Source of the DNA: Candidatus Curtissbacteria bacterium RIFCSPHIGHO2_12_FULL_41_17
GTDB lineage: Bacteria; Patescibacteriota; Microgenomatia; Curtissbacterales; GWA2-41-24
NCBI GenBank assembly: GCA_001774945.1
Contig: MFBL01000008.1
Coordinates: 9,310-52,073, forward strand
Reading direction: 5' to 3'
DNA length: 42,764 nt
Position 1 is the stretch's first letter. Each line of letters opens with the position of its first letter. The translations under genes were made by a program, and so were the position numbers. The notes below the pieces were generated by a model, which saw only the letters and a program-made list of their open reading frames with translations, was not told the origin of the DNA and ran no database searches. Shown in pieces: positions 40,562 to 42,764 of the stretch.

Positions 40562-41230
40562 ATGAGATATTCAATCAGCATGGAAGGTGAAGTTTCAAAT
40601 GTTCCACCAGTTGAAAAAACAACTGCAGCAAAAAAATCTAGATTTATATCTCGAGTTCCACAAGCGGTTAGAACTTTAATAAGAAGATCTTCAAAAAAAG
40701 AAGGGGTAAATGACAAACAGGAAATTTTTTATTACGGTACCCCATTCGATTTTCAAGGATTACCCAAAATTGGAGATGGCGAAGGCTGGGGAGCCGGTAT
40801 TTATCTAACAAAATCGAGAAATTATGCTGAATCATACGCAAGAGGAGGAGAATCATATCGTCAGCATATTGCAGCTGAGGCAAAAGGTAAGCCACGCAAT
40901 CCTCAACTGATAAAAATCACAGTTGCAGGTCAGGCAAATATTGTTAACTTAGAAATTCCTACACCCAAAGAGCTTGAAAATGCCATCTTAGAGAAATTAA
41001 ATGAAGCTGAAAGAACAAGTTTTTTAAAGAGGTATAGTGCCTTTGGAAGTAATACTGAAGCTTTTAAAAACGCTCTTGCACAAACTGTTCCTGCTGAGCG
41101 TTACGTTGCAATGCTGCGAGAAGCAGGAATAGACGGATTCAGGGATCTAACGAGAGATGAGATTGCTATTTTGAATCCAGCAGTTTTAAAGAGAGTTGGT
41201 ACCGAAAAATTGACTGGTTTTGAAAATTAG
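40562..41230 (+). CDS. Hypothetical protein with an ADP-ribosyltransferase-like motif set
   Basis: FYYGT...GEGWGAGIYLTKSRNYAESYA...AGIDG resembles ART-PolyVal-like domains. Confidence 0.5.
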   Translation: MRYSISMEGEVSNVPPVEKTTAAKKSRFISRVPQAVRTLIRRSSKKEGVNDKQEIFYYGTPFDFQGLPKIGDGEGWGAGIYLTKSRNYAESYARGGESYRQHIAAEAKGKPRNPQLIKITVAGQANIVNLEIPTPKELENAILEKLNEAERTSFLKRYSAFGSNTEAFKNALAQTVPAERYVAMLREAGIDGFRDLTRDEIAILNPAVLKRVGTEKLTGFEN

Positions 41231-41255
41231 AATAACTGTTCTTCCTTTGAAGTTT

Positions 41256-41331
41256 AGGAGAGGGGACTTGTCAACCAGAGCATGATCCGCCTTTGGTGGA
41301 AACCTCCGACCTCACCATCTCAAAAAGCGCT
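41256..41331 (-). repeat. Decayed copy of the tRNA-Pro 3' half with a 30-nt insert in the T-loop
   Basis: 41256-41270 matches 42061-42075 at 12/15 positions and 41301-41313 matches 42076-42088 at 13/13. They are separated by TCAACCAGAGCATGATCCGCCTTTGGTGGA. Confidence 0.75.
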
Positions 41332-41343
41332 TTTATAAATGCC

Positions 41344-41724
41344 TTATGTAGGAGTATTTAAAATTTTTATGTCATTCATAGGAAAATGTTTTATGTTGAG
41401 TGAAATGAGAGTAAGATTGTTCACATTTGCTGTTGCGGCTATTAAACAGTCTGTCAAGCTTAAATTTTTTAGTTGTTTTACGTATTGCTGCCAATACAAA
41501 CCCGCTTGTTTTGCAATAGATTTTGTCACATCCCACGTTAGAAATTCCTCCAAGACGCTTTCAGTTTTTAGCAATTCAGAAGGGTAAATATTTTTGTATA
41601 TTTCAGCTATAGTTACAGTGGATATCGAAAACGCGTTTTTGTCTTTTAAACTTTGTAAAAATTCTTCGTACTTTTCATTTCCTCGCAGAACCCAAATAAG
41701 AATATCTGTATCGATTAAATACAC
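41344..41724 (-). CDS. vapC: VapC-type PIN toxin
   Basis: YLIDTDILI, TIAEI, SLTDCLIAATA and LNIKHF motifs. Confidence 0.9.
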   Translation of the reverse strand: MYLIDTDILIWVLRGNEKYEEFLQSLKDKNAFSISTVTIAEIYKNIYPSELLKTESVLEEFLTWDVTKSIAKQAGLYWQQYVKQLKNLSLTDCLIAATANVNNLTLISLNIKHFPMNDIKILNTPT

Positions 41725-41726
41725 GC

Positions 41727-42005
41727 TTAAAAGCTACGGTCTGCGGCTTTTCTACCTCTTTGCACCCAATTGATTACATCTTTTTTTGTTCGCCATTCAG
41801 GATGATTTCTGGCCGCAAAAATACCGCTGGCCGCTTTAAGCGCTTTCCCAAATGCGTCGGGGCTAAACTTTTTCTTTACTTCAAGTTGAACTATTTGCTG
41901 GCCCTTTTTTTCATCTTTTAAAATAACCGTATGGCCTTTTTTAGCTTTCTCGATATAATCTGCAATATGCTGCCGAAATTGGCTTACAGATACAATAATA
42001 GTCAT
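41727..42005 (-). CDS. Phd/YefM family antitoxin
   Basis: IVSVSQFRQHIADYIEKAKKGHTVIL motif; 2 nt upstream of vapC. Confidence 0.85.
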   Translation of the reverse strand: MTIIVSVSQFRQHIADYIEKAKKGHTVILKDEKKGQQIVQLEVKKKFSPDAFGKALKAASGIFAARNHPEWRTKKDVINWVQRGRKAADRSF

Positions 42006-42011
42006 GTTTTA

Positions 42012-42040
42012 ATATTAGTACATTATGTACATATTGTCAA
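42012..42040 (-). promoter_or_regulatory. TA promoter with a palindromic operator
   Basis: TTGACA-N17-TAATAT with the ATG 6 nt downstream; GTACAT-T-ATGTAC at 42018-42030 in the spacer. Confidence 0.7.
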
Positions 42041-42057
42041 CCAGCTTTTTTAAGCTG

Positions 42058-42131
42058 TCGGGGAGAGAGGACTCGAACCTCCGACCTCTGCGTCCCAAAC
42101 GCAGCGCTCTAGCCAACTGAGCTACTCCCCG
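42058..42131 (-). tRNA. tRNA-Pro(TGG)
   Basis: CGGGGAGTAGCTCAGTTGGCTAGAGCG CTGCG-TTTGGGA-CGCAG AGGTC GGAGGTTCGAGTCCTCT CTCCCCG A. Confidence 0.96.
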
Positions 42132-42372
42132 TTAGTAATATTTTCTTTAAAGTATTAAAACCCTTATGAGTTTTAAAAAACTTCTCTCGTAACCTTGCAT
42201 CGATCTCCGCAGTAAATTCCTCTTTATAAATCAGCACAAACGGTCTTCTGCTCTTAGTCGATGGTACTTTTCCCGAATTATGTTCACTTATTCTTCTTTT
42301 TAAATTGTTAGTTGACCCGATATATCTTTTTTTATCTTTCTCGCTTTTCAAGATATAAAGGTACCATTTCAT
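42109..42372 (-). CDS. Small GIY-YIG nuclease family protein
   Basis: WYLYIL...YIGSTNNLKRRISEHNSG..STK.RRP..LIYKE...A..REK motifs. ATG at 42372; the stop codon lies inside tRNA-Pro. Confidence 0.9.
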   Translation of the reverse strand: MKWYLYILKSEKDKKRYIGSTNNLKRRISEHNSGKVPSTKSRRPFVLIYKEEFTAEIDARLREKFFKTHKGFNTLKKILLTGSSSVG

Positions 42373-42374
42373 TT

Positions 42375-42432
42375 GCGCTCTAGCCCCTGGGCCTTTGGCC
42401 CGAAGGGCCAGGGCCAACTGAGCTACTCCCCG
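42375..42432 (-). repeat. Copy of tRNA-Pro nt 1-28 with a 30-nt palindromic insert in the D-loop
   Basis: CGGGGAGTAGCTCAGTT-GGC-[CCTGGCCCTTCGGGCCAAAGGCCCAGG]-GGC-TAGAGCGC; the tRNA-derived parts are identical to tRNA-Pro. Confidence 0.9.
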
Positions 42433-42435
42433 CTA

Positions 42436-42693
42436 TTATATTCTCCAATAATTACGTCCGTGTCTTTGAGCCGCTGCTCTTATGCCGCTTTCTTTAATCC
42501 GAGTAATTACTTCGTCAGCAATCCTCTCCGAATCCGGAACTGGGGGTCTATCTATTCCACTATTAAATCCACCTGCCTTAGGGCAGCCTCCACAACCATT
42601 CTCTCTGATCGAATCAAAGAGTACCGGACACGTTGTCCTGCCTCCAGACGCTTTTACTAAATCTGGATTAATGCACAATCTGTCTTTGCCCAT
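42436..42693 (-). CDS. Small hypothetical Cys-containing protein
   Basis: 85-aa ORF between two tRNAs with C-x14-C-x11-CGGC; no SD seen. Confidence 0.4.
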   Translation of the reverse strand: MGKDRLCINPDLVKASGGRTTCPVLFDSIRENGCGGCPKAGGFNSGIDRPPVPDSERIADEVITRIKESGIRAAAQRHGRNYWRI

Positions 42694-42736
42694 TTTCTGT
42701 TTTTATTCACCCAAAATTCTACGAATTTTGGAGTAG

Positions 42737-42764
42737 TGGGCGGGGTGGGACTCGAACCCACACG
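42737..42764 (-). tRNA. 3' end of a tRNA truncated by the window edge, probably tRNA-Leu
   Basis: CGT-GTGGG-TTCGAGT-CCCAC-CCCGCCC-A; the anticodon is outside the window. Confidence 0.75.

Follow-up and report, generated by a model that had tools for sequence, protein, structure and literature searches.

Near one end of the 42,764-nucleotide (nt) stretch of DNA analyzed here (the window), which derives from Candidatus Curtissbacteria bacterium RIFCSPHIGHO2_12_FULL_41_17, an intact tRNA-Pro(UGG) gene and a distal partial duplication of that tRNA, extending from its nt 23 to approximately nt 70, bracket a self-contained phd-vapC toxin-antitoxin (TA) cassette with its own promoter and a presumed operator. 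After the duplication arose, a copy of a class-wide double-hairpin mini-element entered the partial tRNA copy. We favor the hypothesis that the cassette represents TA cargo in a recombinase-free, GIY-YIG-associated tRNA insertion hotspot, at which breaks are repaired via tRNA homology, and we estimate the probability of this reading at roughly 0.55. The source genome (G000; 836 kb in 58 contigs, 40% G+C, completeness 87%) is, like every genome compared in this study, metagenome-assembled, and the window corresponds to C8:9310-52073, terminating together with its contig inside a tRNA-Leu(UAA) gene. Read 5′ to 3′ along the minus strand, the locus consists of tRNA-Leu(UAA), a small open reading frame (ORF85), a 5′ partial tRNA-Pro copy, a GIY-YIG gene, the intact tRNA-Pro, a 16-nt hairpin, the promoter, phd, vapC, a spacer of ~12-13 nt, and the decayed 3′ copy. 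Past the decayed copy, ORF222 and greA lie on the opposite strand in convergent orientation.

The decayed copy occupies window positions 41257-41331 on the minus strand. Its proximal part is identical to tRNA nt 23-55 in 26 of 33 alignment columns, the anticodon arm being decayed. In gapped local alignment the copy scores 40, a value reached by none of 3000 dinucleotide-preserving shuffles (mean 14.2±2.7, maximum 27.7), and it is the top genome-wide match to tRNA-Pro nt 20-75 once tRNA-Pro genes are excepted. The initial annotation, made from the sequence of the window by itself, had described 41256-41331 as the 3′ half of a tRNA-Pro gene. The segment is indeed a genuine copy whose alignment is significant against shuffled controls, but it is not restricted to the 3′ half and begins instead in the D-arm, at nt 23. 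An E-value-based Rfam scan of 40900-42764 recovered the intact tRNA only, and neither of the two partial copies at the locus scores as a tRNA. We also considered a split tRNA, with the 5′ and 3′ pieces acting jointly, and rejected this idea by visual inspection, since the 3′ piece lacks a stem in its anticodon arm and just 5 of the 7 acceptor pairs would form.

A DNA search of 60 relatives located the phd-vapC cassette in seven genomes, at 70-76% identity; the named relatives returned by a search with the VapC protein belong to Candidatus Curtissbacteria and other Microgenomates/Patescibacteria. In two of these genomes, G022 and G011, the cassette directly follows tRNA-Pro(UGG), as it does in G000, and a partial tRNA-Pro copy that runs from (TAG)AGCGC to nt 73 begins immediately after the vapC stop codon. 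The same vapC-to-(TAG)AGCGC junction at tRNA-Pro(UGG) is therefore found in three genera. The distal copy in G011 is a perfect 51-nt repeat of the resident tRNA-Pro, and that in G022 is uninterrupted and represents another tRNA lineage (anticodon stem CGCCG/CGGTG; T-arm CCGGG-TTAGAAT-CCCGG). The tRNA-like segment is present in 3/3 genomes in which the cassette is enclosed by tRNA-Pro(UGG) and a partial copy, and none of the 10 family members that have tRNA-Pro(UGG) and no cassette retains such a tRNA-like segment. These observations bear out the proposal of the initial annotation that the scar is tied to a TA islet at the tRNA, the scar being a true duplication junction. Because the distal copy accompanies the cassette, and is uninterrupted in G022 and perfect in G011, we conclude that it is an insertion footprint into which the hairpin insert came later. 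No direct within-genus empty-site comparison is available, since tRNA-Pro(UGG) is unassembled in the congeneric genome G001 and the context of greA differs there. At its tRNA-Pro, G017 carries a different cargo, a reverse 92-amino-acid (aa) ORF, followed by a shorter remnant that corresponds to nt 52-75.

On the tRNA-sense strand, the insert between T55 and C56 consists of two tandem 15-nt modules, TCCACC-AAA-GGCGGA and a degenerate TCATGC-TCT-GGTTGA, each consisting of a 6-bp stem with a 3-nt loop. There is no target-site duplication at T55|C56. The insert is now degenerate, and it folds no better than shuffled sequences (z = -0.9 as RNA and -0.3 as DNA). An insert with a hairpin in the T-loop had been recognized previously; its length of 30 nt and its exact placement at T55|C56 hold, whereas the single hairpin proves to be two tandem modules. 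The accompanying suggestion that a palindromic element struck the scar later is likewise upheld, as the insert is missing from the G022 and G011 copies, which are the uninterrupted versions of the scar expected in relatives, and is a member of a repeated family. As for other copies in the same genome, a blastn-short search with both whole inserts of the locus found no second full-length copy; a structure-aware scan together with a degenerate pattern did reveal the repeat family to which the insert belongs.

This family is defined in the present analysis, and window positions 41271-41300 fit its definition. Of 301 genomes drawn from the class, 109 contain the core hairpin, TCCRCC-WWW-GGYGGA, at 1-24 copies each, and 3 contain a reversed control pattern. 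Roughly 8 of 27 sampled core-hairpin sites are 15+15 doublets in which NNNNCC-AGA/AAA-GGNNNN is joined to TCCGCC-TTT-GGCGGA; some of the sampled sites lie in or beside tRNA genes or fragments, and many lie elsewhere. G000 itself contains 32 hairpins of the 6-3-6 type with CC...GG at the loop, compared with ~7 in shuffles, and perfect doublets are found at C14:3336 and C34:2034. A close counterpart to the insert is provided by the metagenome contig L084, whose tRNA-Pro sequence is quite different from that of G000. There, a disabled 3′ tRNA-Pro copy carries TCAGCC-ATA-GGCTGA / TCCGCC-TTT-GGTGGA between T55 and C56, matching the G000 insert at 15/15 positions of the TCCGCC-TTT-GGTGGA module and 11/15 of the other, at the same site and in the opposite orientation relative to the tRNA. 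Together, these findings show that the insert is a copy of a class-wide double-hairpin mini-element that entered at T55|C56 after the duplication had formed.

Positions 10005-12158 of L084 constitute an accretion zone in their own right. A 5′ partial copy, whose 25-nt flank is duplicated, precedes an intact tRNA-Pro with a GIY-YIG gene directly downstream; then come the disabled 3′ copy (bearing an 18-nt hairpin substitution in addition to the T-loop doublet), a gene pair that resembles AbiEii/AbiEi as named by eye, and phd-vapC. At L168 ~1441-1575 (G183), TCCGCC-TTT-GGCGGA is located inside a 16S rRNA gene, by eye in the variable region at ~positions 830-850, where it could be either a native helix or an insertion.

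The cassette also occurs away from tRNA genes. In five genomes, including G001, it extends from promoter to stop codon directly behind ftsZ, with no tRNA piece. Further genomes and metagenome contigs place it 2-32 nt behind tRNA-Pro genes with UGG, CGG, or GGG anticodons, and most of 80 metagenome copies examined have no tRNA nearby. In a phylogenetic tree the ftsZ-linked cassettes form a clade (support 99/98), and the three tRNA-linked cassettes form long separate branches. A comparison of G001 with G017 gives 88% identity for the cassette and 70% for the adjoining 600 nt of ftsZ; for the two g17 genomes, G017 and G030, the respective values are 78% and 77%. Judged from such identities, the cassette is shown to move independently of its flanks, as a discrete unit that is mobile within Curtissbacteria-type Patescibacteria. 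Other placements were seen as well. The cassette ends directly upstream of tRNA-Ser(GGA) at L103 1930-2771 and L104 701-1542, and it adjoins tRNA-Leu(CAA) at L129 3485-4293. Downstream of ftsZ-linked cassettes, a conserved non-coding block with ATTGTGCGACGC is present at L024 4850-5040, L025 4520-4700, and L026 4460-4560, with a nucleotidyltransferase-type (MNT-like) gene following it in L024 and L026. Possibly, the region behind ftsZ is a second small site of TA accretion.

The TA pair is an ordinary predicted type II module of the Phd/VapC type (Table 1). The toxin exceeds the Pfam cut-off for PIN domains, and it scores below the cut-offs of the NCBIfam VapC equivalog models. For the antitoxin, PF02604 is matched weakly and by the N-terminal 28 residues only (24.3 bits against a cut-off of 29.8), and the match to TIGR01552 is weak as well. 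The antitoxin ORF ends 2 nt before vapC. Within the spacer of the cassette promoter lies a conserved palindrome, GTACATAATGTAC, which is presumed to be the operator.

Table 1. Features of the tRNA-Pro locus (window coordinates) and other small GIY-YIG genes of the source genome (contig coordinates)
Feature	Position	Strand	Remarks
vapC, PIN-domain toxin, 126 aa, intact	41344..41724	-	Pfam PIN PF01850, E = 6.2e-14, 53.1 bits vs cut-off 23.6
phd/yefM-type antitoxin, 92 aa, intact	41727..42005	-	Pfam PhdYeFM 2.7e-5, below curated cut-off
Cassette promoter, TTGACA, 17-nt spacer, TAATAT (sigma-70-type)	42012..42040	-	core nearly invariant in 8 cassettes
Short hairpin CAGCTTAAAAAAGCTG, 16 nt, in tRNA-to-promoter gap	42041..42056	-	
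Intact tRNA-Pro(UGG)	42057-42131	-	Rfam tRNA, 68.8 bits
Decayed copy, proximal part (nt 23-55)	41301..41331	-	AGCGCT at 41326-41331; exact 13-mer GAGGTCGGAGGTT at 41301-41313
30-nt double-hairpin insert between T55 and C56	41271..41300	+	TCAACC-AGA-GCATGA / TCCGCC-TTT-GGTGGA, canonical orientation of the family
Decayed copy, distal part (nt 56-69)	41257..41270	-	CAAGTCCCCTCTCC, 12/14 identical
Single-domain GIY-YIG nuclease gene, 87 aa	42109..42372	-	Pfam GIY-YIG PF01541 8.6e-18, residues 2-73
5′ partial tRNA-Pro copy (nt 1-17, nt 18-28, all exact)	42375..42432	-	split by insert at nt 17|18
30-nt GC-rich hairpin insert in 5′ partial copy	42386-42415		between nt 17 and 18
ORF85, small Cys-rich ORF	42436..42693	-	slot varies between near-identical strains
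3′ end of tRNA-Leu(UAA)	42736..42764	-	cut by contig end
Other small GIY-YIG genes	C35:7931-8131, C28:450-647, C35:12674-12874, C38:10660-10869, C1:6644-6859, C49:3482-3688, C23:10141-10359		

On its 5′ side, the intact tRNA-Pro gene is overlapped by the single-domain GIY-YIG gene, whose TAG stop codon falls within the D-loop; the closest solved structures to the 87-aa product are the UPF0213 proteins 1ywl and 1zg2. Upstream of this gene, the 5′ partial tRNA-Pro copy is interrupted by a hairpin insert in turn. In G022, G016, and G017, the corresponding 5′ copies ahead of the GIY-YIG gene each contain two 30-nt doublets, at nt 12|13 and nt 17|18, where G000 has one, at 17|18. These doublets fold strongly (z of about -2 to -4 as RNA). 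Their stems vary in sequence between genomes and yet stay paired, suggesting that the 5′-copy hairpins are subject to selection on structure rather than to decay. The 5′ copies in question (L013 2573-2660 in G022, L016 ~3055-2965 in G016, and that of G017) share a fixed layout of nt 1-12, two 15-nt hairpins, CAGTT (nt 13-17), two further 15-nt hairpins, nt 18-28, and the start codon.

The association between small GIY-YIG genes and tRNA genes extends beyond this locus. In the family, 7 of 16 genomes have a GIY-YIG gene immediately upstream of tRNA-Pro(UGG), and the same tRNA has been invaded repeatedly by GIY-YIG cassettes accompanied by displaced, doublet-bearing tRNA copies. G000 contains eight small GIY-YIG genes, three of which immediately precede a tRNA gene on its 5′ side (Pro, Ser-UGA, and Asn). 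Upstream of the gene linked to tRNA-Asn is a 5′ tRNA copy split by a perfect 20-nt palindrome, CCTGCCTGCCGGCAGGCAGG. A fourth gene is found downstream of tRNA-Ser(GGA), with a partial 3′ copy of the same tRNA in between. Ssn-like GTCATTGCGAG/CTCGCAATGAC repeats flank the genes on C38 and C1, and long direct repeats flank those on C49 and C23. Partial copies of at least 12 nt were found within 2.5 kb of 9 of the 33 tRNA genes in this genome, for which the chance expectation is estimated at well below 1; examples include C19:8487-8510 (tRNA-Thr), C46:11981-11993 (tRNA-Leu), and C20:4229-4298 (tRNA-Leu). Behind tRNA-Phe (C20:4468-4600), an insert of ~110 nt contains a TCGTCC-GTA-GGACGA hairpin and is bounded by a 13-nt repeat, GACTCCCGGCACA.

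A further kind of interruption was observed on the minus strand at L015 2129-2312 (G023) and L016 2533-2744 (G016), in both cases with a GIY-YIG gene directly upstream. In these genomes tRNA-Pro(UGG) is broken in its anticodon loop, immediately after UGG, by an insert of ~110 nt in which a complete but different tRNA-Pro(UGG) gene stands between a leading arm of 19 nt and a trailing arm of 18 nt; GAAATGAC and GTCATTTC can pair. The insert is apparently identical across the two genera while the interrupted outer tRNAs differ, and it therefore looks recently mobile.

Small GIY-YIG proteins have precedents as occupants of repeat-rich loci. The Ssn family comprises single-domain GIY-YIG nucleases acting on single-stranded DNA (ssDNA), the genes for which are flanked by SRM/NTS hairpin repeats (Chenal et al., 2025, PMC11893778). 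Our loci resemble this family in having GIY-YIG-only genes of ~90 aa together with short hairpin repeats, scattered within the genome and across many genomes, and the GIY-YIG genes on C38 and C1 do carry repeats of the GTCATTGCGAG type. Unlike what is seen here, tRNA genes receive no mention in PMC11893778, the SRM consensus HGTCWY...RNCYNB has no match at the locus, and the doublet does not fit it. The nearest precedent for a GIY-YIG gene in a tRNA cluster is SegB of phage T4 (PMC2330249), a GIY-YIG homing endonuclease encoded as a free-standing gene among tRNA genes, whose tRNA region is, according to the abstract, preferentially inherited upon co-infection with a related phage; SegB is not known to be accompanied by partial tRNA duplications, hairpin doublets, or TA cargo. 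The doublets themselves recall repetitive extragenic palindromic (REP) sequences, Rickettsia palindromic elements, and Correia-type miniature inverted-repeat transposable elements, all of them short, structured, multi-copy elements that occupy many sites, including sites within other features. The present unit differs from them in being only 30 nt long, in causing no target duplication, and in being site-exact in DNA that encodes tRNA loops, at nt 12|13, 17|18, and 55|56. SegB is a phage enzyme and has extra DNA-binding parts. Full-text literature searches brought up no account of TA cassettes or hairpin doublets located in partial tRNA copies of Patescibacteria.

In the mechanism that we favor, the tRNA-Pro gene would be an insertion hotspot served by small single-domain GIY-YIG nucleases and not by an integrase. 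The nucleases would cut tRNA-gene DNA in or near its loop-coding parts, and repair or recombination with foreign DNA would then use tRNA sequence as portable homology. The outcome would be a restored intact tRNA, an acquired cargo, and displaced partial tRNA copies, which are those that bear the hairpin doublets. In the present case the cargo would comprise the nuclease gene 5′ of the tRNA and the TA operon 3′ of it. With nt 28 as the end of the 5′ duplication and nt 20-23 as the start of the 3′ duplication, both borders fall in the D-arm sequence TAGAGCGC. The occurrence of the doublet in disabled tRNA copies beside GIY-YIG genes suggests an insertion process other than that of an integrase. 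Loss of the cassette through recombination between the repeats is now unlikely, because the longest identity is 13 nt here compared with 51 nt in G011, and point decay contributes as much as the insert to this loss of the repeat. The earlier idea that the insert disables excision and locks the TA module in place is plausible, if only by inference.

Several observations weigh against this hypothesis. The GIY-YIG genes are linked to the duplications by association only. G011 and L039 have the cassette at tRNA-Pro with no adjacent GIY-YIG gene, the distal copies in G022 and G011 carry no hairpins, and the published SRM motif of Ssn-type nucleases is not enriched genome-wide, with 3 matches against 3 in shuffles. 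The three tRNA-linked cassettes share only 70-73% identity, so an old vertical origin followed by repeated clean loss is possible. Finally, a second recombinase could be missing from the assembly, as the genome is only 87% complete.

We regard as rather doubtful a broader version of the proposal, according to which Patescibacteria of this class would harbor a mobile system, recombinase-free and not described so far, that resides in tRNA genes, with the GIY-YIG nucleases and the doublet acting on loop-coding DNA. Its sites would be the D-loop (nt 12|13 and 17|18), the anticodon loop, and the T-loop (55|56). Each insertion would supply a replacement for the tRNA part that it displaces and would in this way become indispensable; phd-vapC, or the second tRNA-Pro in the anticodon loop of G023 and G016, would be passengers, and the T-loop doublet in the scar would be a direct footprint of the machinery.

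Two alternative explanations are considered unlikely. The first is a Campbell-type insertion mediated by RecA with no nuclease, in which the cassette carries a piece of tRNA-Pro (nt 20-75) fused to the rear of vapC, and a circular or linear copy undergoes plain homologous recombination with whichever tRNA-Pro gene is resident. That cassette and partial tRNA form one unit is shown by the vapC-to-AGCGC junction conserved across three genera, and the distal copies of G000 and G022 both have GGTG at nt 40-43, where the intact genes have GCAG. Exchange at tRNA borders is also documented in the near-identical strain described below. However, such a process leaves the cassettes at tRNA-Pro CGG and GGG and at L039, which have no distal copy, unexplained; it offers no account of the joint build-up of hairpin doublets and GIY-YIG genes at one tRNA, and 50 nt of diverged homology would be a poor substrate for RecA.

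The second, which we judge comparably improbable, is a single composite element made up of the GIY-YIG gene, a replacement tRNA-Pro, and phd-vapC, which would have entered an old tRNA-Pro as one unit. The old disabled gene would then survive as two halves, the 5′ piece (nt 1-28) and the 3′ piece (nt 23-75), overlapping at AGCGC. Consistent with this scheme, the pieces overlap by only 6, 9, and 38 nt in G000, G022, and L084, respectively. In L084 both carry the same 18-nt hairpin substitution and so derive from one old copy. Anticodon stem and T-arm distinguish the old 3′ pieces from the intact gene, and hairpin inserts are present in both pieces. The GIY-YIG proteins of G000 and G022, however, are only 36% identical, against ~73% identity for the DNA of their TA cassettes. 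In G011 only the TA side is found, in many genomes only the GIY-YIG side, and in L045 the same trio surrounds a tRNA-Pro(GGG) gene.

The initial annotation read the scar as att-like, and the corresponding model is a tyrosine-integrase element that entered tRNA-Pro and eroded to an addictive TA pair and an attR, much like a cis-mobilizable element (CIME). Like tRNA islets and CIMEs, the locus has an intact tRNA and a direct repeat of its 3′ part bracketing the cargo, empty sites in related genomes, and no recombinase in cis. In G022, moreover, the foreign-type distal copy is followed by a native-like flank, as would fit Campbell-type integration with a crossover near the 3′ end. What was not detected is a cognate integrase. 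None was seen in cis in at least six tRNA-linked loci (the G000 window locus, G022, G011, L039, L045, and L085), and the whole genome, at 87% completeness, yielded one tyrosine recombinase, a single PF00589 hit on contig C29. The repeat begins in the D-arm (nt 20-23), away from the anticodon-loop and T-loop sublocations that integrases reportedly favor in tRNA genes, and the displaced copy carries a hairpin doublet. The cargo, in addition, is a single cassette with identical promoter-to-stop boundaries everywhere, including at non-tRNA sites such as that behind ftsZ, an outcome not expected of random erosion. Nothing in these data points to an integrase-type att site, and we consider this origin still less probable than either of the two preceding alternatives.

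It is highly improbable that the tRNA-like piece and its hairpins are a functional RNA of the TA operon (a 3′ stabilizer or terminator, or a decoy for the VapC RNase): the piece, ~12-13 nt past the vapC stop, would be co-transcribed and has intact anticodon and T arms in G011 and G022, but the lack of conservation of the piece among cassette copies largely refutes this model. The piece is absent from the ftsZ-linked cassettes, L039, L045, and L085. The version in G000 has a destroyed anticodon arm and an insert whose folding does not surpass that of shuffles, and no terminator-like site was found at the scar.

The surroundings of the cassette in G000 can be compared with those in contig L056, where more than 2.1 kb match the window at 100% identity, starting at nt 1 of the 5′ copy and continuing through the GIY-YIG gene, tRNA, TA pair, scar with its insert, ORF222, and greA. 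Both sequenced haplotypes therefore share an identical scar and doublet. In place of the ~330 nt that separate tRNA-Leu from the 5′ copy and contain ORF85, L056 has a very divergent homologue (window 42436-42736 versus L056 4480-4790). The breakpoints of this exchange, at the 3′ end of tRNA-Leu and at nt 1 of the 5′ copy, coincide with the borders of tRNA sequence. A 33%-identical homologue of ORF85 occupies the same position in G013. On the other side, ORF222 (window 40562-41230) adjoins the scar from outside and is convergent with vapC; L056 carries an identical version, neither Pfam nor NCBIfam yields a match to it, and no homologue of it occurs in the 16 related tRNA-Pro loci.

A broader comparison can be drawn with chromosomal integrons and superintegrons, in which TA gene cassettes with a structured, hairpin-forming 3′ end collect in an accretion zone. 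By analogy, the minimal TA operon studied here may be viewed as a discrete cassette with a structured 3′ end, residing in an accretion zone with other small cassettes. Unlike in integrons, no IntI, attI, or attC is apparent, and the structured 3′ end would be a tRNA fragment.

TA cassettes at tRNA genes are routinely taken for remnants of integrase-borne islands. In these bacteria, the same minimal cassette with identical boundaries occurs at three tRNA-Pro isoacceptors and behind ftsZ, always with no recombinase, and its tRNA-derived border has acquired a site-exact 30-nt double hairpin that recurs across a class of ultra-small bacteria. Should the proposed link between nucleases and duplications fail, what remains is an ordinary decayed tRNA islet containing a small palindrome. 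If the link is true, it would define a testable route by which genome-reduced, integrase-poor bacteria gain and fix accessory genes, and tRNA-gene DNA and the doublet would become candidate natural substrates of these tiny nucleases, which may be of use on ssDNA.

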